DNA of 63,978 bases, counting the filler, from Collodictyon triciliatum (taxonomy: Eukaryota), in assembly GCA_043381765.1 (NCBI GenBank). It is 7 parts of 7 records of this genome, joined end to end, with 100 filler letters (N's around TTAATTAATTAA, not from the genome) between each part and the next. Parts side by side here need not be neighbours in the genome. Positions count along the whole stretch, not along the records: positions 14,592 to 25,378 come from JBHJMP010001826.1; 6 more parts are not named here. One strand, given 5' to 3'. Below, in pieces: positions 190-42,300 of the stretch. Positions within the stretch are counted from its first letter, which is position 1. Every line of letters begins with the position of its first letter. A program made the position numbers and the translations under genes. The notes beneath the pieces are model-generated. The model saw only the letters and a program-made list of their open reading frames with translations. It was not told where the DNA came from and ran no database searches.

Positions 190-1621
190 TCCAAATCGTT
201 CCGCAAGAAGGGAGTGGTAAGTGAACAATGGCATAAAGGGGTAGAGATTTCAGTCGCCGAAGAGCCAACTGAAACGCCAATGAAGAATGCTGAGGAGGAC
301 TATATGAAGGAGATTATGGATGTGCTAGACAAACTCCGGACATCGCCCGCTGCTGCATCCTCATTAACCAGCAAAATCGAGTTTTCGACAGAGGATAAGC
401 TGATTCGGTCCGAATTTACGGTCCCAGAAACCGCTGATGTTGAGTGTAATCTCCTCATCCGCTGGTCAGCACAGACCCTCTTTTCAAAGATGAAGCCTAA
501 GGTGGTTGTAAAGATGATTTCAAACATCCTTTTAGAGCGTCCCATCATCATCGTCTGTCCAGATTTGAGGGAACTATCTTGTATCATGTGAGTGTTTGCC
601 ATACATGGGGGTTTTTTTTTTCCAACGCACATATGCCGCCGCATCGCTCATACATTTTTTTTCTTAAATAAAAAATTATGTGGTTGACAGGTTGTCCATT
701 ATCCCACTCCTGCGGCCATTTTACTTTCAGCTGCCCTTCATTCCAATCCTACCGGCCCAGCTGCAGTCCATTCTGGAGGCCCCTGTGCCGTTCCTTGTGG
801 GTGTGTCGGAGCTGAAACCAGAGACCAGGCAGACCGTCCAAAAGTCTGGTGTTGTGATTGTGGATACAACTATCGGCCGTGTCATCCTGCCAAACAAAGT
901 GACTAAATACAAAATTCCTCAGAACGATATCCTGTGAGTATGATTGTATTCTCATATATACACAACTCATTCTCCCTGTGAATTCATCTGCAACAGTCAT
1001 TAAGATATCCCCGAAGAGAGAAACCTTTCGCATGATTTCTACACCTTTCAAAAAAAAAAAAAAAGCCCAGTATATATTTGTTCATCTGATTTGTTGCATT
1101 TTTCCTTAGTCTGTGTGTTGCATTTTTAGTTTTTGGTTTTAGGGGGGAATGACAAAAGTATTAACATGTATGATGAATGTGTATGTGTTTCTTCTCTTGC
1201 CCTTCTGTGGCGCACCAGGGTCGAGAGACTCAAGCCTGTTCTGGATGGCATGCAGGCGCCCAAAGTGCGGTCGGACAAGCGGCTGATGGACCACTACTCG
1301 GACAACATCGCCCGCATCTTCACGACGCACTACGAAGCGCTCTTCAGCCGAATCACATCGTACTCCATCACAAACACCAGCGACCGACTTCATCCTGTCG
1401 CAGTCTTTCTCAAGGACACGTTTCTGGACGAGATGGTCAGCACGAAGGAGCGGGGCTTCATGAAGCACTTTCTCGAGACGCAGCAGTTCAATGAGTACTG
1501 CGACCGCATTTTACAGCAGACGGTGCAGAAGCCGCGTGATGTTGTTGCGGAGGAACAGAACGCGGGTGCAAAAGCAGCGGTCCAGGTGGTGGATGTCTTG
1601 GACAAGGACGAGTCGGGCTGA
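190..1621 (+). CDS. DENN-domain protein (Rab GEF family), 3' part; exons ~190-587, 691-933, 1219-1621
   Basis: GT-AG introns 588-690 and 934-1218 join in frame. Motifs ILLERPIIIVC, PLLRPFYFQLPFIPILP..ILEAPVPFLVGV (cDENN) and FMKHFLETQQFNEY (dDENN). The 5' end lies outside the window or is uncertain. Confidence 0.85.
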
Positions 1622-2175
1622 TGACGGGGAATCTGTCGGAGCGAGTTGGCAGCCCCTCACCCTATCTGTCTCCCTTTTCCTTTTCCTTTTTTCTATTTTG
1701 GCCACTCATCTCTTTTCTCTATTTTTTTTTTTAATGATTTCTTGATACTTCATGTTGCCCGCTTAATTGATCGATAGATTGATGAATCGAATAAACGGAT
1801 GGGATGGGACATAAGTGCGGTGGGAAGAGATGCATTATTCATGTGTTTTGTGGAGGTGCGTGCGGTTTGGTTGCACACAGTTGCAAACTGGATGATGTGC
1901 GGTTGTTGGTGCTGATGATGAATCGCCCTATCCTGTTTAATATTAACCATTCCTTAACGAAATATGCATAGTCGCAGGTTTTTGTTGCCCTCCCTTCTCG
2001 GTATTTCTTATGCTAAAGACTGGATGCAAGGTTTTTTTTTTTTGTTTGTGTCTTTCTTGGTCTTGGGTATAAATACTTGCCACGTTCAGACAGTTTGGAG
2101 AACAGGGAGAAGAAAGAGAAAGCGAGAGAAACTGCGGAGATGATATAGAAAGGCCAGCGTTACAGGATTGAGCCT

Positions 2176-3538
2176 TCACTGTCCCGCGCCTGCCTGGAGA
2201 GTGATTGACTTATCAAACTGCTGCAAAGTGCTGTATATAGCATGGAAACCGCGTGTGATGTCGGAGCGAGTCTTTGCGCCGGTGAGGACAATCTTGCCAG
2301 AGACAAAGATCAGCAGGACAATCTTTGGCTCTTGCATGCGGTAGATCAGGCCTGGAAAGAGCTCGGGTTCGTAGCTGCAGTATGAATGATGTACATGGGC
2401 AAGCCCTTCCAGACGGATAGGGAAGCTCACGTCGCAGCTTCCGACGATGTTCTGAATCTTAAAGTCGAGAAACCGCGCCTCGAAGCCAATCTTTTGTACA
2501 ATGCGGGCATACTTTTTCGCGGCCAGCTTCGAGTCCTCCTCACTCTTGGCACCTGTGCAGACCATCTTGCCAGAACTGAAGATCAGAGCCGTTGTTTTCG
2601 GCTCGCGGATACGCATAATCACAGCAGCGAATCTATTTGCGAGAAACCTCTTGTTAGGCCGTTGTAATTCGATCCTTTCATTTGCCACGGAGAAATAGTC
2701 TGTGACACTATGGCCTCGGTATTGTGCAAGGTGCATATGAGACAACCATGCTGTCCATTTAATTCCGGCAACAGCATTTGCCAGAGGGAGGATATATAGA
2801 AGGGTAGGACAAGCATGGACAGAATGAAGATAAGGGAATATTTACAAAAAAAAAATAAAAATCCGAATATATGCGAAAATAACAGAGAAATGAACAAATA
2901 TACAGAAATACGCAATAATGCAAACACAGACATATGTAGAAATAACTAGTTATAAGCAGATATAAGCAGACATATATAGATATAAGCAGATGTACTCAGA
3001 TATGAGCAGTAAAGATATTGCTTGCAAGGAAAAGAGAAGGCAAGGAAAACCTCTTGGGATTGTACTCTGCATTTCGTGCATGGAGAGCAATTGTCTTGAG
3101 ATCCAGCTTGCAGCCGAGGTTGACCGTGGACACGACGTTCTGGAGAGTCGGCTCGATGAGCGGGACGTGTGTATTCTCCTCGGAGCGGGAAGGATCACGC
3201 TCGGTCATCATGTCGACCTGGTAGGGTCGCGGCAGCCCTTGCGATGCAGCAAGCATTCCAGACCCTGTATTTGCATGCTGGCCGGCAAAGCCATAGCCGG
3301 GCGCAAGAGAGCCGTACGGCTGCGGAGGCATCTGAGAGCCAGGGCGGCTGAGGCCGAAGGACGAGCCCAGAGACAGGTTGGAGCTGCTTTGCAAGCCCGA
3401 CGAGGCGCCTGTCATGCTGATCTGACTCAGCTGACTCAGCTGGCTCATGTGCCCCATGTGGCTGGCCTGGCTGAGTGGAGCCACGGGGTTCATTTGCGAC
3501 GGGGGCGCGTAGAAGGTGTTGCGTGTGGGGTGGGACAT
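2176..3538 (-). CDS. TBP: TATA-box binding protein; exons 3538-3051 and 2632-2176
   Basis: The spliced product reads [61 protein letters not shown]...[13 protein letters not shown]...[14 protein letters not shown]. All four DNA-intercalating Phe are present. It has an S/Q/G/P-rich N-terminal extension. Confidence 0.97.
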
Positions 3539-5506
3539 TTCGGCGCCTTGTTTTCTTTTTCTTGTTTCTTTTTCTTTTAGGAACTGTGCTATCCTGTGGT
3601 GTGGTGTGGGGTTTGGAGTTTTCATTTTAGCCTTTTGCTGCCGTGCTCTTGATTATTATAAGTTTTTTTTAAAAAAAAAAAAAAAAAGGAAAAAGGGAGG
3701 CAGAAAAGAGGCTTTGATCGATCGGAGCGGTTTGAAGCGGGAATGTTTGGACTGGTTGGGCATATAGAGGAGGGCCATTACGTGTGGTTGAATCGTGGAC
3801 GAGTCGAGAGTGCGATCGGCAGAATCGATCAGGCAGGCAGGAGGGTGGTCACGGAAGATCGTCAGGCGTTGTTGCAGGGTTTGATCGGACACACAGGCAA
3901 AGGCCGCAGATTGATCGCATGGCAGAGAGCAGAAGAGGCGGGTGGATGCGTTTTGTGGTTGGGAAGTGGGTTTGGTGGTTGCGAAGATTGTTGAGTACTG
4001 AGCTTAAAGCGGGTGGGAGGCTGATATAGCGCTTGCTTGCTTATATTCGTTGCTGCTGTATATATATCTCTCTGTCTGGGTTTGTGTGTGTGTGTGTCTG
4101 GATTGGCTGCTAAGGTGTTTTGTGATGTCTGGCGTGTTCGCGAGTTCCGTCAGCTGTGCCAAGATTTCGTGGAAGGGAGGATGTGGTGGAATATTCCAGG
4201 AACACGGGCGATTGTGGAAGATGGTGAGGGTAGGGCGTATATATGGTGTCTGAAAGTGAACTGATATGGATTTCCGCTATATATACTGTTGCAGGCGAAA
4301 TATAGTTTTGACGCATGTGGGTGGGAAAGTTGATGCGCAACGGATGTAAATTTGCCTTATGCTATTGTTTCTACTGCTCTGGCTATGCAACTTATATATT
4401 TGTTACATGCACATACACATTGTTTCATTATGTATATTACATGAAATACAGAAGTATAATAAATGTAGTATATCTTATGTACAGTAAATTCCAGATATGC
4501 AATATAAAGAAGACACTTTTTTTTTTAATTCTCTTGCTCTTCAATCGCTGAAGATTTGGATGCAGGGCAAAGCGCTACGCCAGGGTGTGGGTAAATGTTC
4601 ATGTGCGAAGCAAGAACGTATAGCAATACCAGATGCAGGATCTGGTTCTGGTGAATATCGTGTTTGACAGGCGTGGAGGGAAATGAGGCCGAATTATGGG
4701 CTGCAATTCCTGAGACCCAGCCTCCAATTGTTAACATGCCCAAGAGGAGCGCGTTCCGCTAGAATACTCACCTAGGGCAGGGCTTGCAGAAAAAATGCGT
4801 TGTTCAGTCCAGGGTTTCCAATCTCACGGAAAGATTTTGACAAAAAACATATCCGCCCAGAGCCCCGAGGCCGCGGTCGCTGCGTAACATCGCCCAAACA
4901 CAATATCTGGTATGGTATATGATTATTGATAGCAACTATGGTATGAAACAATTACTTGATATGGTACAATTACTTCCAAATGTGGCGTATTTGTGGCACA
5001 ATCTAATTACCAGAAACGAATTATTGACGAATCCGAGGTATAAGTAGCAGAACGGAGGCAGAGATCCATTTTATATTTAATTGGAAAAATTAGATTTTAA
5101 ATATAAAGAAGGACAACCAACTCACGCTTAGGTGGATCGAGAATGGGGCGGAATCGAGCCGAGGCGCTTTGTTTTGCGCATAACTGCAAAGTGTAGCGAG
5201 TCTTACAAACATACAAGCCGAGTGGCTCAAGGATGGGGAAGAGACTGGAGCGTGAGAAACCACTGGAGGGACAACACCGAGAGAGAAAGAGCAGCTGTCG
5301 ACAATCTGTGGGCAGAGTTTGCCGTAGAGCAGTCACCCGCTTCCCCCAGGCGCTGGCCTTGTCCGATGCCATATATTTCTTCTTTCTTTTATTTTTCCCC
5401 TCTTATTTCTCGCCTTTATCATATTCACAGGCTCAATGACAAATATTTCTTTCTTTCTTTCTTTCTTTCCCTTTCATTCTGTTCATAGGCCGAATACCTA
5501 GCGCAG

Positions 5507-6950
5507 ATGGCCCAGGAACACACTCATCGATATATAGCAGTATTACTGCTACTTGCAGCTGTGGTGGTTGTGTCCTTTCTGGTTTATGACAGGCAAACTG
5601 TCCTGGGCCCAACCGATGCCATAGCAAAGCACGATGAGTTTTCACATACTGGTGTTGACAAGGGGATCAAAAACGCAGAGTCCAGACACATTGCATATAT
5701 GGGAGATGATTTGGGAGACAGAAAATCGGATTACAATAAAGCTCTACGCAAAAACAAAGCAGTTGTCCTATCCGTTTGCAACGCTCCCAGGCTCCGGTTC
5801 TGTGACTTTATCAAATCAGCTCGTTCATACGGAGCTATGGTTCATTTATTAGATTACAAAGCGCAATGGGTCAGCAATAGAAATAAGATATTTGTTATGC
5901 GTGATGCAGTCCAGAAGTACTCAAACGACACTGTGATTGTTTTTGCAGACTGCTTGGATGTCATCTTCAACGATGAGTTTTCTTCTATTGTCAACAAATT
6001 CAAAGAGAAAAAAACAAACATTATTATGCCACTAGAATATATATGTTGGCCAAACGATATTGCATTTCAGTTCGTTCCCGATAATGTGCCGGCTGCACGA
6101 AGATGTTCCAGTGCATACGACGTTAAGAAATCTCATAATAAATGCTTCAAAAACGGGTAAGTGTTGTTTTATCACAAAGAAATTTTATTTTGGTTTAAAC
6201 ACACACACACACACACAAAAAAAAAAAAAAAAACTAACACAAAAATAAAAAAAACAAAAAATAACAACGGANNNNNNNNNNNNNNNNNNNNNNNNNNNNN
6301 NNNNNNNNNNNNNNNTTAATTAATTAANNNNNNNNNNNNNNNNNNNNNNNNNNNNNNNNNNNNNNNNNNNNAATTTTATTTTGGTTTAAAAACACACACA
6401 AAAAAAAAAAAAAAAAAAAAAACTAGACGAAGAGGAAAGAAGACATATGATTGCATGGGATAAAGTCGCAATCCCATCGAATTTTAAACAAACAAATCTC
6501 ATTCCCCATAGACCTCGATATATCAACTCAGGAACCTACATCGGATACGCCTGGGTGCTAAAGGAGTTTCTCGGCGCAATGTGCAACGAAATAATAACGA
6601 TGAATCACAAGGGAGTCGACGACCAAAAATACTTTCACGAGCTTTTCTTACACAACAAGCTCGATGTTTACTTGGACCACTGTGTTGAGTTTACGATGAT
6701 AATGCTAACGGTAGAACAAGCGTGTCGCCCTAATTGCCCTTGGGTCCGGAGAAACTATGATTATCTGGAGTACATACCAACCGGCTCAAGACCAGGTTTG
6801 GTGCACTTTGTTTACCACACTAAATTCACCATCTACAACAAGTACGTCAACAGCACGATGATTGTCAAAAAACCTCAACAAGTCTACAATGTGCCAATGT
6901 TATGGACAAACAACGAGCCAAAAGAAGTACATGAATTGTGCCCTTCATGA
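5507..6950 (+). CDS. Type II membrane glycosyltransferase, PLOD/procollagen galactosyltransferase-like GT-A domain; exons 5507-6156 and ~6440-6950
   Basis: N-terminal signal-anchor (IAVLLLLAAVVVVSFLV), VIVFADCLDVIF (DxxD), EYICWP, YINSGTYIGYA and DDQKYF motifs. GTAAGT donor at 6157; the intron spans an assembly gap and the acceptor is uncertain. Confidence 0.75.
6272..6371. other. Assembly spacer N-run / TTAATTAATTAA / N-run (also at 14492, 25379, 39865, 54343, 62351); sized gaps at 23106-24083 and 45109-45871
   Basis: The same 100-nt spacer with six-frame stops recurs; it is an artificial contig joint. Confidence 0.95.
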
Positions 6951-7477: not shown

Positions 7478-10400
7478 TCAAGTCGTTGCTTTCTGTCTCC
7501 ACTCCATACCTTTCTCGGTGTCCTGTTCAACACCCCACCCACTCTCATAGCATTCAGCAACCAAAGAAAACGCCTGAGGATATTTGTATTTATCGCCAAT
7601 CCTTTCTCCCCACTTGCCCAAAACATTCTCTTTCTTTTCAGCCATTTCTTTCAAAACAGTGAATGCCTCTTTTGAACCTTTCTGCGTGAGCAGCTGCAGT
7701 TTTTCGAAGTTTTCGGCCTTTCCAAACCATTCGATACCTTTCTCAGCGTCTCTTTCGACGACCCATCCATCTTCGTAACATTCAGCCATCATTTGAGCCT
7801 GAAACCTGGAGAATTTGCCCCGGGCGCAATGGGCAACAAAGTCCGCATCATAAGATACCGCACCAATTGAAAGCAAGAGGGATTTGTTGAATAAGCTCAA
7901 ACCTGACGCATTTCTTAGTTCAATATCCCCTCCTTCCAACTTCCTTGGGCCAATAATCCGAACTGTTTTTGCATCATAGATTCTGTTGGTATCAATCAAG
8001 TTCATTGTACCACTTGGTCTGCTGAATAATTCAAAGTTTTCATCCGTGGCTTCATTCATAGGGAGGAATTTTACTGGGGTGTATGTTACTTCCGGTTCTT
8101 TGAAGCTGGGGGTTTGGTTACCTGTGGCTATATCCCACATATGTATTTTGTTATCTTCACCCCCAGAGGCCAGCAAGATTTCATCATTTGGTCCTTGAAT
8201 AATGCAAACAATTTTGGTTGCTTTCTTATGACCCTCGTATGTTTTTATTTGGTATCCATAGGTTACGTCCCAAAGACGTATCGTACCATCTTCACTTCCA
8301 GATACCAACATCTTTTCGCCATTCGGCCCTTGAATACTGCAAACACTGTTCACAGAGCTGGTGTGTCCTTCTAACCTTTCTATTTGATTTCCTGCAGCTA
8401 CATCCCAAACAAGTATTGTTTTATCATCACTTCCAGAGGCCAATAGAAATTCACCATTTCGCCCCTGGGTGCTGCAAATACTTAAAACATAGCCTGTATG
8501 TCCTTCAAGTGTTTTGATTTGCTTTCCTGTGGCTACATCCCAAATCCGTATCGATTTATCATTGCTTCCGGATGCCAGCCACTCTTCACCATTCGGTCCT
8601 TTTATACTGCAAACACATACAACCCAGGCTCTATGACCGTCTAATTTTCTTATCATACTTCCTGTGGATACATACCAAATACATATTGTTCTATCATCTC
8701 CCCCAGATGCCAATAAGGTTTTACTGTTCGGTCCTTGAATGCTGCAAACACTATTTATAGATGCTGTATGTCCTTCTAATGCTTTGATTTGGTTCCCTCC
8801 TGCAAAGTCCCAAATACGAATGGTTTCATCTTCACTTCCAGAGGCCAACCAATTTTCACCATTTGGTCCTTGAACACTACAGACACAATTGATATATCCT
8901 TTATGGCCCTCTAGTGTTTTGATTTGGTGTCTAGAGCTTACGTCCCAAAGTCTTAATTTTTCATCCAAACTTCCAGAGGCCAACCAGTTTTCACCATTCG
9001 GTCCTTGAACACTGCAAACACACTTGGTGTGAATTGTATTCCCCTCTATTTTATCATGAGGAATTCCAAATTTTACATTCTTCATATTTGCATTATCAAA
9101 AATACAATCACCAAGCATCGAATTTGTAAAGTCAACCCCACTCAAGTTGGCACCAGTGAAGTTTGCACCGTCAAGCATTGAATTACTAAGATTTGCACAC
9201 GGAATTTTGATTTTTGATAAGTCCATATGACCAAACGAAACATTCATAAAATTCAAAAGTGTAATTGCATCAGATGCAGCATTTGATTTAGTTTCATCGG
9301 CTCTTGACATAAAGACGATTCTGAATAATGATGTAATTATTTGCTCACGGTTCCATTCCTCATCCATTGTTGTGTCATCAAGAGTTTCCTTGATAAATTC
9401 CTTGACTCTTGTAAACTCGACAGGCTCTCGGTTGATTCCGATGTCTTTTGAATGAGTGGACAAGTATTCGCATGAGTTTAATGTTCTGGGGTGAAACCAT
9501 CCAACTTTTATTGAGAATATATCCCTCATTTCAGTCCAAAATTCGACAGCGTCATAATGCTGTTTTAATTCGGTATATTTTATCGCAATTGATTCACAGC
9601 TAGTCCATATTCCAATATAGTCCATGGTGTGTATTTCACTGAATAAATGAATCAATGATCTATACAGTTGAATGGCTGCTTCATGCTCTTTCTTTTTCTC
9701 CATTAGGCTTGCTATTTTTACACATAAAGAACCATCTTTCAACGCCATAGTGGTCTTTGTTTCCTTCCTGATAGTAGCTGCCTTCTGGAAATACTCAACG
9801 ACTTGGTCTAATCTGAATGCATCGAGTTATTCAAAAAAAAATTGATATAAAAGCACTTGCATGAAGATGGCTTAGTTTTTTTTTAAATTGAACAGGTCTG
9901 TTACCTTTGAAGTTCAAAGTTTTTTCTCCCAGCAGCTTCAAGATAATTTGCATTATCAACATGTGAAAACTTGAAGCTTCTCAAATTAATGTCGAAATTT
10001 TCAACACTTTTGATGCAATCCAGAATAAAAATATTTGCCAGACTTGTTCTCTCATGGTTCCATCCAAGTTTTTCATGAAACCTATCTCTAATTTCAGCCC
10101 AGAATTTGGCGGCATTTTCGAGCAGTCTATTTTCCTTGCAATATTTATTTGCATTTTCACAAGCTGTCCAGCAGTGCCAATTTTCAAAGGACGATTTTTC
10201 ACCATGTCTGACAGCAAAAGTTTTGCAAAGTTGAATGACTGCTTCATGCTCTTTTTTCTTCTTTACGAATATTATGATTTTCTCTATCTGTTGTATATCA
10301 TTCAAGGACATGACAGTTTTTGTCTCTTTTCTTATATAAGCTGCCCTCTGAAAGAATTCCACGACTTGGTCTAATCTTAATTCAAAAATTATGAAGAGGA

Positions 10401-14591: not shown

Positions 14592-14682
<91 letters not shown>
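14592..14682. repeat. (ATT)n microsatellite abutting gap
   Basis: Direct reading. Similar runs occur at 54443-54540, 62041-62195 and 62263-62350. Confidence 0.95.
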
Positions 14683-14684
<2 letters not shown>

Positions 14685-16206
14685 AGTATAATTATAATTT
14701 AGTCCAAATTGACTCACTATATATTAATGTAATGTTGTATAGCGTTTAAAGAAACACTTGGAAGTACGAGAATATGCCCATTTAAACCAACCACTGAAGT
14801 AAATCGAACATCATGCTTCCATGAAAAAAAAGGATGCAGTGGTCATGTAAACTCTGACAAATGTTTTTAAGGGAGAAAAGCTTTGAATACTTATGCTCAG
14901 TTCTAAAAGTCAGAAAATATGTGAAAGTATTATTTGCAAGTCATGTGACAATTTTTCGAAAATAATCAAACAACCAAGGTATTTACTTTGAATTTTGCAC
15001 TAGATGAGAGATTTTATTAGAAATACTTCATCAGACTATCAATAACATACCTTTCTTTTTTTTTAAAAAAAAATCAAGTTTATTAACTATTTTAACAGTC
15101 ATTAAATATTATTTTTGACCTAAAGTACACACAAATATTGCAGATAAAAGATTTCCTACCCAATCCCCATCGTATTTATGTTTGAATATGTGTTTTCATA
15201 CTAATCAATCCTGCTTAAAATTATATGTATCTTTGATTTACTTGAATTTTATTTCTAATCATTTTTAAAAGTAACTAAGCTGTTTTTTGAAAGATGTATT
15301 TTGGCAAAATTATAATTAAAAGTATATATGAAATTACATATATGACAGCATGGTGCAGCTGTGATTGATCGTTCTCATAAATCGAGCAGAAGTGTCGCCA
15401 TAATATTTTCCCATAGTTTTGTATAAAAAAATCAAAAAATTATCTTCAATTAGATTGTAACCTTGATTTTCTCATAATTACACCAAACTGTAAAGATTGT
15501 AAAAAGACAAATTTTTAAAATTCAGAATATGATGAATTCCTATAACGCACAAACAAGACAAAATCGGAAAATGAAAAAAAAATTATTGCGTCTTAATAAA
15601 TGAAGAATGTGCAATTGAAAGAAAATTGAAATATTAGTTAACGCATAAAATCTGCACATTTATTTTTTTTTATACGTCTGCCATTCAAATAATTATCTAT
15701 GACTGCTCATAAACAAAATCATGCCTTTATTTTTTTTGGCATGTATACGAAGTACACTTTCAGAGCAATTTTTTCCAATTTTCAGAAAGCACTGCATCAC
15801 AACCTGCAACTTATAATTTAAATATAACAAATGAAGTAATAATATTGCGCCTATTTTTATCCTGTTTTTAGGTCGATTTTTTACTCCATTATGAGGAAAC
15901 CAAAATTTTCTGCTATGAACATCGCGTACGACCCTATTTTTAAGCAATAATACTAGAATCAGGCTCGCAATTTATATTAAGCATTTTATCACATAAAATT
16001 TTCAAATTGTAGCAAAGTGCGAGACATATATACAGAGGGTGCCAAATACTCCAGCCACAAATATGTCAGAGGCAGTGGAGTGTTTTACAGAAAATCTTTG
16101 AGGTTAGTTATTAATTCACTAATCCAATGGTTTACTGTCATAATATCTGATAAATTGCTTTTACATCCCACTAATATTCAATCAATTTTAATATCATCAG
16201 TTTTCA

Positions 16207-19200
16207 ATGCTGCTTATCACATTCATTGCAATAACTTCGTTGGTGTCATTTACTGCTTCTGGTAAGCCCCGCAGAATGTGATTTTGTTATTTAGGGGCAT
16301 TCAATTTTCGGTACGAAAGTTTTTATGTAATCAAGTAAATTGCATAACACAAGCTGTCAATATTCTCGGGAATAATTACTTTCCATGAAAATGCAAGATG
16401 CATTTCAAATATTGCTGAATCTGTATGATGAGAGCTGCCCATTCGATTCGGAAGCACACAAAAAAACTGTCATGTCGCCCGGTTTACATGATATCTATCG
16501 AAATATATCCACATCCAGAAAAAAAGTCCTTAATAGACATGATTATTCAGGTAAGCACCATAAGAATGATAGTAATTCCCATGAAAATATTCTGTAGATC
16601 AATTTGAAAGAAACTAATATGCAATATTTGATATACTATAAAGACGTGGGCATGAAACGAGCCGGAAATATTACCAGCCAGTTAGAACTTCTAATTCAAT
16701 TTTACGATTTACTTGATGGAGAAAAATGGATCAATAATCGTGGATGGAAGGACCAATATACTCCAATTTGCGAATGGTATGGAATCCACTGCGAAGAGAA
16801 TTGCTCAAACGAAGATATACTTGTAAGTATGAAGTAATTTTAAACTTCTTGTCTTATATTCAAAAACTACTAAAATAATAATGACTAATTTTGTAAAAAA
16901 AAAATTAGATAGAGAAATAACCCCATTCCATTGTTTTGTTTTGATAGAATAATACATGTCCGATTGTCGGAATCATATTGCCAAATAATGGACTTTATGG
17001 GGGAATGGAAGCTCCAAATGCAATCATCGAGCAGCTTCCTTTCTTGAAGAACTTGACCTTAAGCTCCAATTTCATTTACGGGAATCTACCTGACTTCAAT
17101 CTTCCGAATATTTTGTATTTAAATATTCGAGGGAACCAGCTTATTGGAACAATACCAGACTTTCAGAGAATTCCACATATCTCGAATTTGATTATTGATA
17201 ATAATATGTTAAGTGGAACTGTTCCTGATTTCTCTGGAGTCACTCATGCAAGATATTTGTGGATTGGATCTAGTAGCAAATTGACTGGTAGCTCATAGTT
17301 TGTCATCTAGGAATGATAGAACTTGAAAATTGACCAGTCTTTTTTTTATAAAGGAACATTGCCTGATTTCTCTGGATTACCAACCGTTCAAGACCTTAGG
17401 ATATACGAATGCAAAATATATGGTTAAAATCCTTTTAAAAATTAAATTTCACCTTATCTCTAACATTATTCTATGTTGTAGGTACCATTCCAAACTTTCG
17501 ATACATCCCGAATGCCCTGATAGTCTTTCTTCATAGCAATGAGTTTACAGGTGATAATTAAAACTATGTTAGTAATGTTAGGCATTTGGACCTAATTAAA
17601 TAACTCAATAGGAACGATTCCAGACTTCAATGAGATTCCAAATGTCGAACAGATATCTTTATATATCAACCTATTGTCCGCCATATTTCTTTTCAAGCAC
17701 TAGCCTGATTTGTTTCGGTATTAATATAAGACCTAATAGGGCCCATTCCAAACTTTAGTAAGATAAAGAACGTCTGGTGGATATCTATTTTTTATAACCG
17801 ACTGACAGGTAAGTAAAAGTGAGGATAATTTCTAATTAAAACACTTTTTTCCTTTTTTAGATTTAAGGGAAAGGTTTTTGTATCGTTTTCTATTGTCTGA
17901 TGTTGTTATTGCGCATTGTATTCAATCAGTGGTTAATTTATTACCATAGGAACTCTTCCAGACTTTGATGGAATTCCAAACTTAAGTTTTCTTGATGTAT
18001 CAAACAATCTGTTATCTGGTAGGTCTATGTATTATTTTCAATTGATTTGTGTATCTAAATTTATTTCGAACAAAGGTAAAATCCCAAATTTTCATGGTAT
18101 TCCATGCGCGGAACATATTTTTCTTCAAGCCAATTTACTAGAGGGTGAGTTTTTTTTTCTCCTATATTCGATTCAAGTGAAGGACGGTTTTTTTTTTAGA
18201 TTTTACTGGAGGGTAAGTTTTTTTTTCCTTTATTCGATTCAAAGTACTGGAGGGTAAGTTTGAAATCACATAGTTGGATTATACAATCGGATTTTAATCT
18301 ATTTGAAGCGCAGGAGCGATCCCAGACTTTACTGGTTTTACGCAAGTTAAATCAATAGATTTATCCAAAAACAGACTTGGCGGTGAGTGACCTTGTATCG
18401 AAGCTTGAGTATCATACGTTAAATATAACACTATATATATATTCAAAATACCACGTTCAAGTACACTAAGAAACATACCTAGAAATATTATGCATTTAAG
18501 TATTTTTAATCCTGCAGGATACATCCCGGATTTTCACAACATTCCATCGATCCAAAACGTTGACATTTCTAATAACCAAATTGTTGGTAAGATAATCTTG
18601 TTTTTTTAATAGATATTGTTGTCACCTCAGATTCTTTTTTGTAGGTACAATTCCGAACTTTGGAGGAATTCCGAATATTTTATTCGTCCTCTTATATAAG
18701 AATCAGTTCAACGGTAATTTTTATATTCCCTAAATATCTTGCCAGGTACTGCAACCAAGAAAAACTGTTCATGTCGCCTATTACTTTCATATAGGAACAA
18801 TACCAAACTTCAATGGAATCTCAAAAGCACTTTCTTTGCTTTTATATAGCAATAAATTGACAGGTAAGCCTCATCAGTCCGTGGTTAAATGATTGAAGTT
18901 TAAATTCAAACATATCATGATAGGAACGATACCTGATTTTGATGGAATTATAAACATCAGAAGGCTTCAAGTAGACAGCAATCTCCTAACAGGTTGGTAA
19001 AATATATTCATGAACGAATCGGATTTTTATAAATATACTTATTTCTCCAGGACCAGTACCCGATTTCACCTATTTGGCGAGCATGGAGCATTTTTCCGCT
19101 TACAAAAACCTTGTTCAAGGAAGTGTGCCAACCTTTGAAAACTGCCCAAATTTAAAAGAAATAGTGCTCTTTAGAAACAATTTAACAGGGACCATGCCTT

Positions 19201-21597
19201 CTTTTAAGTTACTTGACTTAACGAGATTGATTTTGAGCGAAAATCATATTAGTGGCTCCATTCCAGATGAATGGGAAATACCATCAATCCAATATATCGA
19301 TCTTTCTAGAAACAAAGTGGAAGGGAAAATGCCTAAACAATTTGAAACACTTTTTGAATTGAAATCTCTCATCCTGTCACACAATTGCTTCTCTGGAAAT
19401 ATGCCCATCAAGTTCTGGAATCTACCAGACCTTGTCACAGTCGATTTAAAGAATAATTCATTTATTGAAGATGTCGGTGTCTTTGTATCTCCAATAAATG
19501 ATGAAGATGATTACAACTATTTCTACGAGAGTCTCTTGCTTGATGATAATAATCTATATGGAGAACTAAACTGGTGGATCTTTGATTACGTCTTTAATGT
19601 AAAAACAGTTAGTTTGAGAAACAATAATATCACTAAGCTCGATAATCTTACAAATTTACTCAAATGGACATCACTAGAGTTGTCTGGAAATCCAATTGTG
19701 GGAAGCATTCCAGAATCATATAGTCTTTTTTCAAAGCTAGAGTATTTAGGATTCAGTAATACATCTATGAGTCGTGGACGGGCCAATTTTCTTCCTTCTT
19801 TCATGACATACGCAATTCCTTTTAGCCTGGGTGATGATTCAAAGCTTTATTTGTGTCCTTCAATTATTTCTAATAATGGAATTATTACATTGAAAGTAAA
19901 CTTGGATCCAGGATACTATGAATATGAATTCTGTAAATGTTTGCCGGGATATTTTGGCTTCGGTGATAATTGCGTTCAATGTCCCAGAGAATGCGAATGC
20001 ACAGATGGAGTCACTTTGAATTATTGCCATGCATCCCCAAATCTGATTACGATCAAGACAATCATCTCATGCCCATACCCTCAATCTTGCAAGACATTAA
20101 TTCCAGGGAAGACTTCTAATTCCAATAAAACGGTTGAAATTACTCACTTGTGCGAGGATGGATACGAAAGTCATGCATGTTCAAAATGTAAAAGCGGGTA
20201 CGGAAGTCAAGGGAGGTCTTGTGTAAAATGTCAAAATGGGACTACATATTCAACACTGATTTTTGGCTCTATTGGTTTTTGCGTCTTCATGTCATTTTTG
20301 TATTTCTCAGAAACATCAAAATCAGGTAGCTTTATAATTTATTTCACTAATCGCACCTCAGTTATTGGCATTCATCAATAATGTTCTTGGTATTAATACA
20401 TATATATTTAGCAAAACTTGGAATAACTTTGTTTCATCTGCAAACTCTCTCAATTGTCTCGACCGGATTGAACGAGTCAGAGGAAACAAGCAGCTTTATT
20501 GACATTTTTTCATCCATCGGCTCTATTCAATTCCCAAACCTTTCCTGTGTCCTTGGGATAGATAATTTATTTGATTCTCTCTTGTTCAGTTTTTTAAGAA
20601 TTCCTGTTTTCATAATTTTTGGGTCAATTGTGTATTACCATGGACATGGACAAAAAAGAAACAAGGTAAGGAATAGTTGCATTGTTTATGTAGGCTTATT
20701 TTTTTTTGAAAAAATACATATCTATAGGCGTTCTTCATCACTATGAACCTTTTGTTCTTTATCTACTATTCCATCGCAAGAGAAGTATTCGGAGTTTTTG
20801 GATGCACTGTATATGATAATGGAGAAGCCGTTTGGTACTTGAATTTCAAACCGTGGATTCAATGCAGTCCGTCTACTTTTGAATACGCGAAACTTATTGC
20901 AATTTCTGTCCTAGTGTTTGTTGTATTCTTGGTTGGATTACCTGTTTTTGCTTGGTGGAAAGTTAATATTACGACAAAAAGTTATGGCTACGACCCAGAA
21001 GCGCGATATGGATTTCTTTACCTGGCTTACAAAAAGGTATACCTCGGTAATACATTGTCATATATAGCGATTCAGTACTTGGTATCAATTCTCAACACTT
21101 CTTTATTTTAGACCTTTCAATATTGGGAATTTGTCATAATCGCCCGTCGCATCGCATTTTCTTTTGTTCTTAGTGTGATTCCATACACTAGTCCGTCCGT
21201 TTTCTTTTTTCTTCTTGTAATCGTCATCCAGGTTAAATTTTACTTTTTTTTTTTACCTTTACAAAAAAAAACAATTTTCAAGGATATACCATAATTGACC
21301 ATATACTTACAGGGTTCAATTTGGATGCAAAAAGAGTACCAGCCGTACAAAGTTGAAATAGAAAACCAAATGGAACTAACCAGTTTGTACATCATTTTCA
21401 TCTCATTCTTACTCGCGCTTTTATCGAATCTTCTTGGATCAAAAACGTGGGTCACAGTTTTGGTAGTTGGAATGAACTCAACGTGGTTGTTGTATTTCAC
21501 GACTGTCGCATTTATAATTCCGCTCTTGAAAAAAAGTGGAATCAAAAAAAGGATTGTATCTCTGAGACGACTCAAGGGGAAATTAACATCATTATGA
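16207..21597 (+). CDS. LRR ectodomain - Cys-rich linker - multi-pass (about 7 TM) membrane receptor-like protein, multi-exon
   Basis: Signal-peptide exon 16207-16261 (MLLITFIAITSLVSFTAS), LRRNT cap (W.NNRGW...PICEWYGIHC), and plant-type extracellular LRRs (G.IP.F....L..L.L..N.L.G). Then CKCLPGYFG..C..C, CEDGYESHACSKCKSGYG, hydrophobic helices with FHLQTL, YL..PWIQC, YGFLYLAYKK|..YWEFVIIARR, QPYK..EN.ME. Stop at 21595-21597. Confidence 0.85.
17354..18992 (+). repeat. Eleven 69-nt single-LRR exons (phase 1-1)
   Basis: 17354-17422, 17482-17550, 17612-17680, 17740-17808, 17950-18018, 18076-18144, 18314-18382, 18518-18586, 18645-18713, 18795-18863 and 18924-18992. All are preceded by AG, and all except 17612-17680 are followed by GT. 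Confidence 0.9.
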
Positions 21598-21989
21598 AAC
21601 AATGCTTCCTCGAATAACATGTCCAGGATGATGACAATCCAAGAATAAAGCAAGAAATGAAAATGATATTCTTTTCCTTTTTTTTCTGTGACATGAATTA
21701 TTCCCATCGTTTTTTTTGGTCCATCAATTCATTTCATGATTTTTTCGAAGTTATGGCTTATGTTCGCTTATCTCATCGAAGTCTCTCTAGCACCACATGT
21801 GCGGTTATTGTATCGGGTGTTGTTATGGTTGTAAAAGCGACAGCCTTCCTTATAGGCGAGCCCTTTCAGCTCCTCAATCACAAATAAATCCCCATTACAG
21901 TGAAGACTGTCAATAAGGTGGTGCCTTATTCAACATAATGTTTAGAGTGCTCTAGACCGATATTTTTTAAAGCTTGAAGTGGGCACTTC

Positions 21990-23105
21990 ACCCCAATCAA
22001 AGACAACTGGACAAAATCTGGGGGAATACGCGTGAATCCTAAATTCGTTATATTTGACAAAGAGCAGGAAAAAAATGGGGAAAATACCCACCTTTGTCGC
22101 CAATCATTCAGGAGAGTCGCTGCCGTTTGGAGATACGCCCTCAATGAGTCTGACATCCCACCAACTCTCACAACAATGTGCTCTGAGTCGGATAAAGGAA
22201 AAAAAACTCACAGAAATGCATGAAATGGCAGAAAAGGTCAACCAGCCCAAAAGATCGCCACCGCCAAGCCGACCACTGCCAAACGAGCAATTACAACACG
22301 CAAAATGCTACAACACGCAACTTTGGCCACAACACAAAAGAAGCCAACTACAGCGCTGAAAGCTGGCCAAAGTCAAAACGATTCATTTTCCAATGCCAAT
22401 AGGAGAATTCGTGACGAGAGAAAGTCGTGGATGAAGTGCTTGATATCTCAGTCAAAACAGAGTGTTATGGAGGGTCCCAAAATCAATATATGGATATCAA
22501 AATAAAAAAATGGACGAACGACCTGTCGCTTTGTCTGGACGTACTTCTTCAAGTTTGTCAATCAACACGGAGGAGGCGATATCGATATGCATCAACAGAA
22601 GCCCAGCATAAATCACTGATGCGAAGCAGCCTAGTCCATCGGAACGGTTTTCCTGATTGTTTAGTGGCTTCAAAAATCCTAGACTATTGGCCTGGTATAA
22701 TTCCTCAACATTGAATATTTCGAATTAAAGGAGCTCTTTTAAAAATAATAATAACAAAAAGGAAATTCTTATGAGAACCATTTTCTAATTCCCAAGTATT
22801 ATCGCATGTCTCACGCACTCAGCTGAAGCTCAAGAGGCTGAAGGAGCTGGAAGACATCCGCCGCAGCTTCATCGCTACAGATAATCAAAAGTATAAAAGC
22901 TGGAAGCAAGCCCATATATCTCAGTTACGTCCTAAACACCGCGCCCTACTTCTCAATATCTCCAACAGAGAGCTGTGGATAGGTGCGCGCGTGTTTCATG
23001 TAGCAACGACATCTACAGAACGCTCCATGTGCCTTAGTGGAGACGACTCTATCGAACACACATTTGTGAAGTGCTCTCTTGCTCAAAAAGTGACAGAGTC
23101 TACCC
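21990..23105 (+). mobile_element. Decayed non-LTR retrotransposon (L1/Tx1-like) ORF2 C-terminal remnant
   Basis: Fragments in shifting frames: SGGIRVNPK (end-of-RT-like), KWQKRSTSPKDR (W..R.LS.kGR-like), and a zf-RVT-like WKQAHISQLRPKHRALLLNISNRELWIG...SMCLSGDDSIEHTFVKCSLAQKV running into the gap. Confidence 0.65.
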
Positions 23106-24087
23106 NNNNNNNNNNNNNNNNNNNNNNNNNNNNNNNNNNNNNNNNNNNNNNNNNNNNNNNNNNNNNNNNNNNNNNNNNNNNNNNNNNNNNNNNNNNNNNN
23201 NNNNNNNNNNNNNNNNNNNNNNNNNNNNNNNNNNNNNNNNNNNNNNNNNNNNNNNNNNNNNNNNNNNNNNNNNNNNNNNNNNNNNNNNNNNNNNNNNNNN
23301 NNNNNNNNNNNNNNNNNNNNNNNNNNNNNNNNNNNNNNNNNNNNNNNNNNNNNNNNNNNNNNNNNNNNNNNNNNNNNNNNNNNNNNNNNNNNNNNNNNNN
23401 NNNNNNNNNNNNNNNNNNNNNNNNNNNNNNNNNNNNNNNNNNNNNNNNNNNNNNNNNNNNNNNNNNNNNNNNNNNNNNNNNNNNNNNNNNNNNNNNNNNN
23501 NNNNNNNNNNNNNNNNNNNNNNNNNNNNNNNNNNNNNNNNNNNNNNNNNNNNNNNNNNNNNNNNNNNNNNNNNNNNNNNNNNNNNNNNNNNNNNNNNNNN
23601 NNNNNNNNNNNNNNNNNNNNNNNNNNNNNNNNNNNNNNNNNNNNNNNNNNNNNNNNNNNNNNNNNNNNNNNNNNNNNNNNNNNNNNNNNNNNNNNNNNNN
23701 NNNNNNNNNNNNNNNNNNNNNNNNNNNNNNNNNNNNNNNNNNNNNNNNNNNNNNNNNNNNNNNNNNNNNNNNNNNNNNNNNNNNNNNNNNNNNNNNNNNN
23801 NNNNNNNNNNNNNNNNNNNNNNNNNNNNNNNNNNNNNNNNNNNNNNNNNNNNNNNNNNNNNNNNNNNNNNNNNNNNNNNNNNNNNNNNNNNNNNNNNNNN
23901 NNNNNNNNNNNNNNNNNNNNNNNNNNNNNNNNNNNNNNNNNNNNNNNNNNNNNNNNNNNNNNNNNNNNNNNNNNNNNNNNNNNNNNNNNNNNNNNNNNNN
24001 NNNNNNNNNNNNNNNNNNNNNNNNNNNNNNNNNNNNNNNNNNNNNNNNNNNNNNNNNNNNNNNNNNNNNNNNNNNNNNNNNNNAAAA

Positions 24088-24123
<36 letters not shown>

Positions 24124-24129
24124 AAAAAA

Positions 24130-24178
<49 letters not shown>

Positions 24179-25289
24179 AAAAAAAACTAAAAAAAAACGC
24201 AAAAAAACAAAAACCAAAGCAAGAAAAACAAAAACAAAACAAAACCAAAAAAACAAAAAAAAAAACAAAAAAAAAAACAAAAAAAACAAAAAACAAAAAA
24301 AAAAACCAAACAGAAAAGCAAAAAACAAAAAAAAAATACAGAGAATGACAGAGCCGGAAGTTATTATGCTCTTGTCTTAGAGAGAAGCCCTTTACTTTCA
24401 TTCATCGATTCCTTTGCTATAGCTTTACTTGAAATTATTACGTATGTCCCTCTATTTCCTTTCTATTAATACAATTATATACCTAATAAAATGCTGATGA
24501 AATCCGAAACTTACCTAATCAACTCTCTCATCCAAAAGAAAACCCACTTGAGTTGAAACCTCGTGCTCTAACTCCTACTTGGAAGAGCTGCTTCTAGCTT
24601 CAAATCAGACGCTATACTAGATAAGCATGCAAGTATCAGAAGAAGAAGTATGCTGTGAAGGGGAAACAGTTTGTATTAATTGGCTTCTTACATATTAGCT
24701 TTCACTAGAGTCCCAGATTATTCATCGTTCCTTAATTTATTCACTTTCATCGCTACTTAGATTCTAATGTACTTGATTTTCATTTAATGCTCTCATTAAT
24801 TTTCTTCTATTTTCATTTTATTCTTTTTACTAAATATAATATTTTCCTTTTCTCTCTTAGATTTTGAAGCGCTTGTGTAATCGCTTCAGTCTCCAGCATT
24901 TACAGGAAGTTTGGTGCAACTTTCTCTCCGATGGGAAAGTATTCCCTATAAAATATTGGATATTAATTGTGCGTAGCATTTATTCGACTACAATATAGGA
25001 CTTTGGACATGAGCATTGGGAAGATAAGCGCCTCTTTATTAGTCACTTTGTGGAAAATCACATGGTATTCTTACTGTATCGCTAGAATGTACTCTTTTTA
25101 TAAAAAAAAAAAAAAGCATGATTTCAGCAATACTGATTTACCATACATTCTCTTTCAGCTGAAGAAACTGACGTTCCACCAATGCTCCGTGATGGAGACA
25201 TATCGTGTTTTTTTATCTCATCCACCTATTTTATATAAAATTCCTTATAATAAAAAAAAAAAGAAAAACTCCCGCTTTATATTTTGTAC

Positions 25290-25369
<80 letters not shown>

Positions 25370-25478
25370 TTTATTTTTNNNNNNNNNNNNNNNNNNNNNN
25401 NNNNNNNNNNNNNNNNNNNNNNTTAATTAATTAANNNNNNNNNNNNNNNNNNNNNNNNNNNNNNNNNNNNNNNNNNNN

Positions 25479-36186: not shown

Positions 36187-36904
36187 TCAATCAAGTCTCG
36201 GTGGTACATGATGCTGCGGTCGATCTTTGACTTTGCCAGATGCATGCTCCTCCTGTTTTGAAAGAGACAAGATGTTCTTTCTTTGTTTCTTGTTTTCAGA
36301 ACAGTCGGCTTTGAAACACGGGATAGGAATATGTCTGTCCGAATTTACATGCGAAGGGAAATACAAACTGCTCCTCAGACGCGGCTTTCGTCCGAATCAT
36401 ATTGAGCTCGTCCTGAAGCTGTTTCTGGTCTTGTTCCTTTAGCAGTGTGGAGTTATTTTCCAACATAAACGGCGATTAGGTTGTGTTATGTGGGAGGGAG
36501 TGCGGAGGTACTTTTCTCATTCTCTTCTCCTGCATCTGCTCGTGCAACGCTTTGTACATCATGGATTTGCCAGCGTGGACTTTCATTCTGTGGGCTTCTT
36601 CCCTTTCCAGGGATTTCTGGTTCAGCTTCTCTTGCTCCAACAGCGTCCTCTTTTCTTCCTGCGCATTATCACACAGGCAACGGCAACGCGATGAATGCAG
36701 TGCCGTTCAGTTAGTTCCTCCAAAGTATCACACAGTATCAGCTTTAGTTCATTGGGCACATTCCGCACCAATCGAAGGAAATAACACATACATACATACA
36801 TACATACATACATACATACATACATACATACATACATACATACATACATACATACATACATACATACATACATACATACATACATACATACATACATACA
36901 TACA

Positions 36905-36935
<31 letters not shown>

Positions 36936-39318: not shown

Positions 39319-42300
39319 ATGAGGCTGGCCTCGGTATTTTTTTTTTTATGTGTTGCTGGTATTAAGGAATAAGAATCTCGGTTCAAAATTTTACTGATTC
39401 GCAAAAAGGAGCGTTTATTGGGGACTTTTTTTTCTCTCTGGCTTTAAAATTAAGCTGGGTATAACTTGATACCAAATGGGAATATAATGAGGAAAGCTGT
39501 AAGGAGTTAACTCCTCTCGGTATGCTGGGTTTATACATTTTGTGAAGTCGGCTCTACAATCAAGGAGTTGAAGTATGCTCCACAGATTATAGATAATATG
39601 AATAACCTTTTTTCAAAAAAGGCCGATATAAAACTGTTTCAAACAATCCAAAAAAACAAAAAACAAATACCAGGAAAAGGTGTTCGCATTATATATGTAA
39701 ACAGGCCACATCTTCCCAGATAAGTTCATGCCATGCGAGATATTTCTGTGTTAGGCACCCATGTTCTAAGAGGGAATCTCAACTTATTCTGTTCGTACCA
39801 TCTTGCTGCATCTATTTCGGAGAACACGTTCCTGTGGAAGGATAAACTCATAACGTCCTGCCTGNNNNNNNNNNNNNNNNNNNNNNNNNNNNNNNNNNNN
39901 NNNNNNNNTTAATTAATTAANNNNNNNNNNNNNNNNNNNNNNNNNNNNNNNNNNNNNNNNNNNNGGATTATATCAAAAGGAAGATATCACAAAAGACTCA
40001 AAATCATGCTACGCTTGTCCAAAAGGCACATTCAACTCAAAATCAGGCTCATATGGAAATAAATCATGCATCGAATGTCCACAAGGCACTTGGAATGATA
40101 GAGACGGTCAAGCATCATGCACGTCATGTCCAGCTGGTACATTCAACAATAAAACAGGCTCATTCAACCAAGCATCATGCATTTCATGCCCAGATGGAAG
40201 CTACAGCTCAGTTGGAAGCGCATCATGTAGTTTATGCTTATCAGGATTCTACCAAAAAGAAGGAATAAAAAAAGACTCACAATCATGCCATACCTGTCCA
40301 AAAGGCACATTCAACTCAAACTCCGGTTTATATGGAAACAAATCATGTATTGAATGTCCACAAGGTACTTGGAATGATAGAGATGGTCAAGCATCATGCA
40401 CATCATGTCCAGCCGGGACATTTAACAATATAACTGGCTCATTCAATCAATCATCATGTATACCGTGTCCAAATGGAAGCTACAGCTCAGAAAGAAGTTC
40501 ATCATGCAGTCTATGCTTATCAGGATTCTATCAAATAGAAAATATCACAAAAGACTCAAAATCATGCTACGCTTGTCCAAAAGGCACATTCAACTCAAAA
40601 TCAGGCTCATATGGAAATAAATCATGTATTGAATGTCCACAAGGTACTTGGAATGATAGAAATGGTCAAGCATCATGCACGTCATGTCCAGCTGGTACAT
40701 TCAACAATAAAACAGGCTCATTCAACCAAGCATCATGCATTTCATGTCCAGATGGAAGCTACAGCTCAGGAAGAAGCGCATCATGCAGCTTATGCTTATC
40801 TGGATTATATCAAAAGGAAGATATCACAAAAGACTCAAAATCATGCTACGCTTGTCCAAAAGGCACATTCAACTCAAAATCAGGCTCATATGGAAATAAA
40901 TCATGCATCAAATGTCCACAAGGCACTTGGAATGATAGAGACGGTCAAGCATCATGTGCATCATGTCTAGCCGGCACATTCAACAATAATACTGGCTCAT
41001 TTGATGAATCATCATGCCTTTCGTGTGCAAATGGGAGCTACAGCTCAGTTAGAAGCGCATCATGCAGTCTATGCTCATCAGGATACTATCAAAAAGAAGA
41101 CGTCACAAAAGACTCGCAATCATGCTACGCTTGTCCAAAAGGCACATTCAACTCAAACTCCGGCTCATATGGAAACAAATCATGTATTGAATGTCCACAA
41201 GGCACTTGGAATGATAGAGACGGTCAAGCATCATGCACATCATGTCCAGCTGGTAGATTCAACAACAAAACCGGCTCATTTGATGAATCATCATGCATTT
41301 CATGCTCCAATGGAAGCTACAGCTCAGAAAGAAGCGCATCATGCAGCTTATGCTTATCAGGATTCTATCAAAAAGAGGGAATCATAAAAGACTCACAATC
41401 ATGCTATGCTTGTCCAAAAGGCACGTTCAACTCAAACTCCGGCTCACATGGAAACATATCATGTATTGAATGTTCACAAGGCACTTGGAATGATAGAGAC
41501 GGTGAAGCATCATGTGCATCATGTCCAATTGGCACATTCAACAATAAAACTCGTTCATTTGATGAATCATCATGCCTTACGTGTTCAAATGGAAGTTATA
41601 GCTCAGAAAGAAGCTCATCATGCAACTTATGTCCATCAGGATTCTATCAAAAAGAAGGAATCACAAAAGACTCAAAGTCATGCCAAGCTTGTCCAAAAGG
41701 CACATTCAACTCAAACTCCGGCTCATATGGAAACAAATCATGCATTGAATGTCCACAAGGCACTTGGAATGGTAGAGATGGACAAGCTTCATGCACATCG
41801 TGTCCAGCCGGTACATTCAACAATAAAACTGGCTCGAATAATCAATCATCATGTATTTTATGTCTGAATGGAAGCTACAGCTCAGCCGGAAGCACCTACT
41901 GCAACTTATGTCCAACACGTTCGACAACTAAGAAAGAAGGCTCTAAAGGAATCGAAGACTGTGAATGCATGAACACATATGTGTCTTTTGGTGGTGTTTG
42001 CACATGTCCCCCAGGAAAATTCGAGGATGGGAGTCGATGTGTCAACTGCAAAGTTGGCTCATATAAACCAACATACGACACCAGTTACTGTATTCTTTGT
42101 CTGAACAAATTTACAACCAAAAACAATGGTTCCATGAACTCGACGGATTGTGTTTGTAATAACGGGTTTAAATTGATAAATTTTACGTGTCAGTGTAAAC
42201 CAGGATGGTACGAAAAGCAGGAAGAATGTTTCAAATGCTCTCCAGGTACCTTCAATGAGTATTACGGTCAAACTTTGTGCAAAGACTGCCCTACAAATTC

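Follow-up and report, generated by a model that had tools for sequence, protein, structure and literature searches.

A run of eleven 69-nt leucine-rich repeat units, ten of them with canonical exon borders, in a receptor-like gene of the protist Collodictyon triciliatum

Why should the middle of a receptor-like gene be cut into eleven consecutive 69-nucleotide (nt) units, each encoding a single leucine-rich repeat (LRR), when the repeats on either side lie in long, uninterrupted exons? The question is raised by a 63,978-nt stretch of DNA from Collodictyon triciliatum (assembly GCA_043381765.1), here called the window, which consists of seven parts of seven records joined by 100 filler letters each; the gene lies in the part from record JBHJMP010001826.1 (positions 14,592 to 25,378). 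The DNA is eukaryotic nuclear in character (24-49% G+C in 2-kb windows, GT-AG introns, many simple repeats). An original prediction, made from the sequence, had proposed that any subset of these exons can be skipped, duplicated or swapped in frame, with combinatorial ligand-binding surfaces as a possible outcome. We consider it likely that the array is the central ectodomain stretch of the receptor-like gene and a relic of old growth, its exons being normally spliced together.

The array spans positions 17354-18992 on the plus strand. All eleven units of the original prediction are in place, each 69 nt long and in phase 1, but AG/GT borders flank only ten of them, the third unit having no donor, so that the description as eleven exact exons holds for the units and falls one short for the splice sites. 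Each of the eleven encodes, as had been proposed, one 23-residue LRR that opens with G-x-(I/L)-P-(D/N)-F and passes through a short loop into an LxxLxLxxN strand; the seven-residue strings singled out earlier as the variable face are positions 13-19, and positions 15, 17, 20 and 22 are conserved in all eleven units. The unit borders split glycine codons throughout (11/11), with the last two bases at the start of a unit and the first base of the next glycine codon at its end. The neighbouring LRRs do lie in long exons (340 nt upstream and 1275 nt downstream), which match Pfam LRR_4 (8.6e-21, exon 16), LRR_1 and LRR_8.

A scan for 69-nt stretches with AG before, GT or GC after and an open phase 1 recovered ten of the eleven units. 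Counting both strands, the window as a whole contains 156 open AG-69 nt-GT candidates; G.[ILVM]P[DN]F stands at the start of only ten, all of them array units, and the array is thus beyond chance. Among 5.8 billion proteins searched, the only close relatives are open reading frames (ORFs) from the transcriptome of Diphylleia rotans (CRuMs, Collodictyonidae). The spliced array (253 residues) matches Diphylleia LRR proteins at E values of 1e-28 to 2e-44, and its alignment to one of them, P0122, is gapless and in the 23-residue register. A Pfam match of its own was obtained for one of the eleven single exons (array exon 5), a low rate that is no surprise for pieces of 22 residues.

The introns around the array exons measure 57-169 nt, mostly about 59 nt, and 11 of the 12 contain an in-frame stop. 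The exception is intron 9 (18019-18075; 57 nt), the retention of which would place 19 extra residues in frame between two LRRs. Three-frame translations of the three long array introns (141, 169 and 135 nt) revealed no relic LRR exons. In the 169-nt intron after gene exon 10, the exon end with its donor (TACTrGAGG/GTrAGTTT, the slash marking the junction) occurs in three copies within 18134-18261 (at 18136, 18204 and 18245), each followed by a T-run and a short common stretch; the intron accordingly includes two out-of-frame decoy donors.

The array makes up exons 5-15 of a 20-exon gene model (16207-21597, plus strand), assembled from splice sites and homology, with a complete and open coding sequence of 3762 nt and a product of 1253 amino acids (aa). 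The predicted domain order is a signal peptide, an LRRNT-like cap, about 27 plant-type LRRs, a Cys-rich stalk and a multi-pass tail. By its Pfam and homologue matches, the predicted ectodomain is that of an LRR protein of the plant-specific (G-x-I-P) type; the cap, in exon 3, is putative, its match to Pfam LRRNT_2 (E value 0.0037, 18.0 bits) falling below the curated cut-off of 20.7. A tblastn search found no second LRR gene in the window, leaving one 11-exon array in one gene.

At the third unit the donor position (17681-17682) is occupied by CC, and the acceptor is normal. From the start of this exon to the following acceptor there are seven GT or GC dinucleotides, none of which would yield an exon length divisible by three, and read-through reaches a TAG at 17701. 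In the assembled sequence, array exon 3 cannot be joined to array exon 4 by GT-AG or GC-AG splicing. With the exon omitted, the intron becomes 189 nt long and the product, now of 1230 aa, stays open. Because array exon 3 is intact and among the units nearest the array consensus (49-62% identity to the other array exons), any loss would be recent. The CC may be a two-base miscall or a polymorphism; it may mark a very recent donor loss, with the exon skipped by way of the 189-nt intron or the message truncated; or some non-canonical splicing may operate. A U12-type AT-AC intron, running from the AT two bases inside the intron after array exon 3 to an AC seven bases ahead of the acceptor, would be in frame and add three residues; we rejected it, since the sequence bears no likeness to the U12 donor or branch-site consensus.

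The array looks old, with no recent change. Over the 55 pairs of array exons, nucleotide identity averages 50.5% (maximum 66.7%), adjacent exons are no closer to each other (50%), and identity to the LRRs of the flanking long exons is 48.1%. Tandem Repeats Finder detected no tandem repeat at a score of at least 30 in 16000-22000, and thus no recent repeat at the DNA level. The 12 array introns, trimmed of splice signals, resemble each other no more than they resemble other introns of the gene (66 pairs, mean z 0.02, three pairs above 3, versus 84 control pairs of array with non-array introns, mean z 0.05, three pairs above 3). From the identical length, position and phase of the units we infer an origin by tandem duplication. 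An intron interrupts the Gly codon of G-x-I-P at one fixed point in each of the eleven repeats, making every repeat its own 69-nt, phase 1-1 exon, and the layout is most simply read as a relic of array growth through old tandem duplication of an exon-plus-intron unit; alternatively, an ancestral intron might have been present in all repeats and then lost at both ends. Arrays of equal-length, same-phase LRR exons in Tetrahymena are explained by clonal exon expansion (Xiong et al., PMC6564038). Introns could also have been gained independently at the recurring sequence of each repeat border, in which case equal length would simply follow from the 23-residue repeat. Such gain would agree with the lack of remaining similarity among the array introns and with those exon ends that resemble the proto-splice consensus (CAG in 4/11, AGG in 1/11). 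However, six of the eleven ends depart from that consensus, at least one repeat border within exon 16 reads ACAG/GG yet has no intron, and it would be unusual for introns to be gained independently eleven times in a row at a single codon position. Repeated intron gain fits worse than duplication, and we regard it as improbable.

The surface residues of the array had been described as variable, but they are not specially so. For comparison, random sets of 11 were taken from 82 LRRs of 23 residues that belong to nine Diphylleia proteins. The exposed sites of the array (positions 13, 14, 16, 18 and 19) have a Shannon entropy of 2.3-3.1 bits, which differs from that of the random sets by no more than about one standard deviation, and at scaffold positions 3-9 the array is the more uniform. 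The variation follows the usual pattern, that is, ordinary repeat-to-repeat LRR variation over one composite binding face of a solenoid. The differing beta-strand residues would then shape a single ligand-binding surface, and all exons, when normally joined, would form one continuous LRR solenoid.

The earlier claim that any subset of the array can be skipped in frame is correct, and the 23-residue register is kept as well, since each exon encodes a single LRR and is 1-1 symmetric; we checked it with array exon 3 omitted, which gave the open 1230-residue product. Modularity of this type is a precondition for skipping, not evidence of skipping. One could suppose that the eleven are cassette exons skipped in many combinations, one gene thereby yielding a receptor repertoire with different binding surfaces. 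Their uniform length and phase and their shortness would suit this, and skipping of exon 5 in human NLRP3 (PMC6642158) is a precedent, although even NLRP3 is described there as yielding two main isoforms and no combinatorial set. A survey of 65 eukaryotes associates skipping with short exons that have longer flanking introns, and reports raised skipping rates in bilaterians only (PMC6142364), whereas the introns flanking the array exons are short. Moreover, the exposed positions do not exceed those of the family's ordinary LRRs in variability, the units are successive diverged repeats (about 50% nucleotide identity) and not near-identical alternatives, and array exon 3 is not canonically spliceable as assembled. 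Among the Diphylleia isoforms (nine groups, 29 pairs, of which 28 aligned), no gap exceeds five residues and 0/28 pairs have a repeat-sized gap; these isoforms belong to another species, known from transcripts alone, and were compared only as members of 90% identity clusters, and the test is a weak one. The short introns and the lack of repeat-sized isoform gaps are indirect evidence that leans against combinatorial splicing, and we consider a set of cassette exons very unlikely. We give marginally less credence still to the array of this free-living protist being a splice-time combinatorial library of eleven frame-neutral single-LRR exons, with the donor-less exon 3 marking ongoing turnover, and equally little to the corollary that one receptor gene with an ion-channel-like tail would show many LRR surfaces.

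An alternative with more weight, which we consider possible though doubtful, is that array exon 3 is newly dead, and that the transcript either skips it, encoding a 1230-aa receptor with one LRR fewer, or keeps the 59-nt intron, with truncation as the outcome. The locus would then show evolutionary repeat loss caught in progress, not regulation. The CC and the absence of any in-frame site among the seven alternative GT/GC dinucleotides point this way, as do the preservation of frame on skipping and a resulting intron length (189 nt) near that of the longest intron of the gene (169 nt). However, the exon is intact and as similar to the other units as given above, so the loss would have to be very recent, and a two-base miscall or a heterozygous site explains the CC equally well. 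As for an old array whose exons are normally spliced together, several points weigh against it: constitutive inclusion of the array exons is our inference; no intron similarity survives as proof of exon-plus-intron duplication; the CC donor makes a full 11-exon mRNA impossible by canonical splicing from the assembled sequence; short symmetric exons are themselves linked to skipping (PMC6142364); human NLRP3, with similarly modular LRR exons, does skip one of them (PMC6642158); and the isoforms compared come from a different species and from 90% identity clusters only. Even so, an old array with constitutive joining is the reading that we hold to be likely. The exons of the gene are listed in Table 1, together with three other genes of the window.

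Table 1. Exons of the LRR receptor-like gene and intron-bearing neighbours, with positions counted along the window
Feature	Position	Strand	Remarks
Exon 1	16207..16261	+	Start codon and hydrophobic signal peptide (hydrophobic window, residues 1-19); ends in phase 1
Exon 2	16398..16550	+	Borders supported by splice signals and frame only
Exon 3	16611..16822	+	LRRNT_2-like N-terminal cap, W-x-G-x-x-C motif; borders supported by splice signals and frame only
Exon 4	16948..17287	+	First LRRs (units of 22, 23 and 24 residues), uninterrupted; from unit parsing and Pfam LRR_4/LRR_1/LRR_8
Array exon 1 (gene exon 5)	17354..17422	+	69 nt, phase 1-1, AG/GT
Array exon 2 (gene exon 6)	17482..17550	+	69 nt, AG/GT
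Array exon 3 (gene exon 7)	17612..17680	+	69 nt, normal acceptor, intact LRR consensus, then CC, no donor
Array exon 4 (gene exon 8)	17740..17808	+	69 nt, AG/GT
Array exon 5 (gene exon 9)	17950..18018	+	69 nt, AG/GT; own Pfam match to LRR_8, E 0.016
Array exon 6 (gene exon 10)	18076..18144	+	69 nt, AG/GT; 3' end and donor triplicated in next intron
Array exon 7 (gene exon 11)	18314..18382	+	69 nt, AG/GT
Array exon 8 (gene exon 12)	18518..18586	+	69 nt, AG/GT
Array exon 9 (gene exon 13)	18645..18713	+	69 nt, AG/GT
Array exon 10 (gene exon 14)	18795..18863	+	69 nt, AG/GT
Array exon 11 (gene exon 15)	18924..18992	+	69 nt, AG/GT
Exon 16	19051..20325	+	About 10 more LRRs (some irregular), Cys-rich stalk, first membrane span; uninterrupted
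Exons 17-20	20412-20665, 20728-21036, 21112-21231, 21313-21597	+	Multi-pass membrane tail, stop codon
PLOD glycosyltransferase domain gene	5489-6950	+	Pfam match, split by introns
Class 3 lipase gene	48529-49640	-	Pfam match, split by introns
Oxysterol-binding protein gene	54391-56218	+	Pfam match, split by introns

Exon-modular LRR arrays, understood as at least three consecutive exons of equal length and one phase that encode whole repeats, are known from ciliates, vertebrate NLRs and, less strictly, plant LRR receptor-like kinases of group II (LRR-RLK II). The present array, with eleven 69-nt units of which one is without a usable donor, belongs to this known kind; its novelty lies in the lineage, in the 69-nt phase-1 unit and in the receptor family concerned. 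In insect Dscam, mutually exclusive exons compete for one structural slot, and in lamprey VLR, an incomplete gene is filled in by somatic copying of cassettes. Both systems likewise obtain a variable surface from modular units, whereas the eleven units here are successive parts of one complete, intron-bearing gene. Somatic cassette assembly of the VLR type was considered and discarded, the gene being complete over 20 exons and 10/11 of its units having AG/GT borders. The closest likeness is to the Diphylleia rotans proteins (P0122, P0133, P0149, P0151 and others), which combine LRRs, a Cys-rich region and a multi-pass tail with repeats of 22-23 residues; they differ in repeat number (P0122 has about eight more N-terminal LRRs) and are known from transcriptome ORFs alone.

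The Tetrahymena arrays also consist of tandem LRR exons of one exact length and one phase, with the junction codon split between neighbours (PMC6564038). There, however, the exons are 90 bp long and in phase 2, as against 69 nt, phase 1 and one 23-residue plant-type LRR each in C. triciliatum, and they number in the thousands, some being at least 97% identical, as against about 50% nucleotide identity here and no nucleotide-level repeat family. Human NLR genes share strict exonic LRR modularity, with the border at the same place in each repeat and modules removable in frame (PMC2747839, PMC6642158). Human NODs have one 28-residue LRR per exon and NLRPs two LRRs per 171-bp exon (PMC2747839); the LRR exons of human NLRP3 are all 171 bp, and the gene is expressed with and without exon 5, splicing that was not seen in mouse or pig (PMC6642158). 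These LRRs differ from ours in being cytosolic and of the ribonuclease inhibitor (RI) type, with 28-29 residues and the border inside the beta-strand (same sources), whereas the C. triciliatum repeats are predicted to be extracellular, have 23 residues and carry the border before G-x-I-P. Plant LRR receptor kinases and receptor-like proteins have the G-x-I-P repeat type and, as a putative further feature, an LRRNT-like cap in common with the present gene, and in SERK-type genes (LRR-RLK II) five 24-residue LRRs are distributed over several small exons with conserved borders (PMC7496461). The plant receptors differ in having a kinase, a single-pass anchor and a 24-residue repeat, in place of the Cys-rich stalk, multi-pass tail and 23-residue repeat of this protist. 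In the full-text literature, no paper combines '69-bp exon' and 'leucine-rich repeat' as far as our search showed, and a search for symmetrical phase-1 exon duplication in leucine-rich repeat genes returned nothing relevant.

The homology of the gene extends well beyond the array. The whole model aligns to Diphylleia P0122 (residues 154-1233 with 343-1419) at 39% identity over 1084 columns with 11 gaps, and exon 16 has 41% identity to its best homologue, P0001, over 100% of the exon. Among solved structures, the nearest to the LRRs by sequence are plant LRR receptor kinase ectodomains (FLS2, 2e-65; GSO1, 7e-65; PEPR1, 4e-56); a search of solved structures by sequence with the tail gave no meaningful match. 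A search with one Diphylleia tail returned 13 proteins at E values of 1e-5 or below, namely eight Diphylleia LRR proteins and five distant ones. Pfam, searched at E values up to 1, assigned no family to the Diphylleia tail (P0123) or to the tail of the paralogue in the window. One protein, P0141, matches PF06011 (TRP) at 31.9 bits (cut-off 28.5), and a profile of the tail family aligns to P0141 in hhalign (99.2%, E 2e-19) over a part that overlaps its PF06011 region. The multi-pass tail therefore appears distantly like PF06011, linked to it solely via P0141; PF06011 is the multi-pass domain of fungal TRP-like/Flc proteins. A minority of the language-model neighbours of the tail carry PF06011, DUF7630 or Ephrin_rec_like domains, which we treat as leads only.

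As far as sequence comparison can tell, the tail is a module common to at least three kinds of ectodomain: LRR, Ephrin_rec_like and FG-GAP-like. A second receptor-like gene in the window (39917-43834, plus strand) has the same multi-pass tail in a single long ORF with 16 Ephrin_rec_like matches. It contains a 279-nt tandem repeat (39965-41885; 6.9 copies, 86% match), its 5' end is cut by a run of N, and its layout is unlike that of the LRR gene, with one exon per repeat, which lies 20 kb upstream in the window. Of the metagenome scans for relatives with gene structure, one gave 160 pattern matches and 0 relatives, and another gave only a single contig, L001 (4171 nt). This contig carries, at 646-3453 on the plus strand, an intronless ORF of 935 aa with FG-GAP-like DGDGD repeats, a Cys-rich stalk and no LRRs; its tail is the same module as that of the LRR gene, including the R-F-G-F-L-Y-L-P motif. 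In Diphylleia, two proteins from the same Trinity gene (P0138 and P0139, both 1754 aa) are identical from about residue 385 and 91% identical overall, and their divergence is concentrated in the FG-GAP-like region (about residues 87-380); alternative 5' exons, alleles or a chimeric assembly could account for this.

If the array is indeed an old one with its exons normally joined, C. triciliatum, a protist with its closest known relatives among the CRuMs, would add one more independent lineage to the few that have one-repeat-per-exon LRR genes (ciliates, vertebrate NLRs, some plant receptor kinases). It would help in working out how exon duplication enlarges repeat proteins, and it serves as a reminder that runs of 69-nt exons are easily missed by gene finders. 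The gene also draws attention to a hitherto unstudied family of receptors, whose ectodomains, whether of the LRR, ephrin-receptor-like or FG-GAP-like kind, would be set on one common multi-pass tail. For receptor diversification in unicellular eukaryotes, the locus would have a bearing only if skipping were frequent and combinatorial.

In the rest of the window, no Rfam family reaches its gathering score. The PLOD, lipase and oxysterol-binding protein genes of Table 1 are ordinary eukaryotic, intron-bearing genes. An open frame of 782 aa on the minus strand (7478-9826) encodes a WD40 propeller. It is most similar to NB-ARC/NACHT-WD40 proteins of cyanobacteria and to one EukProt transcript, the best eukaryotic match at 38% identity, and no near-identical protein turned up in the collection searched. 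Two regions, 22775-24400 and 44917-46200, are open in all six frames, the first including a 253-nt A-run at 24084-24336. Microsatellites are numerous in the window, for example (ACAT)n at 1-108 and 36786-36934.

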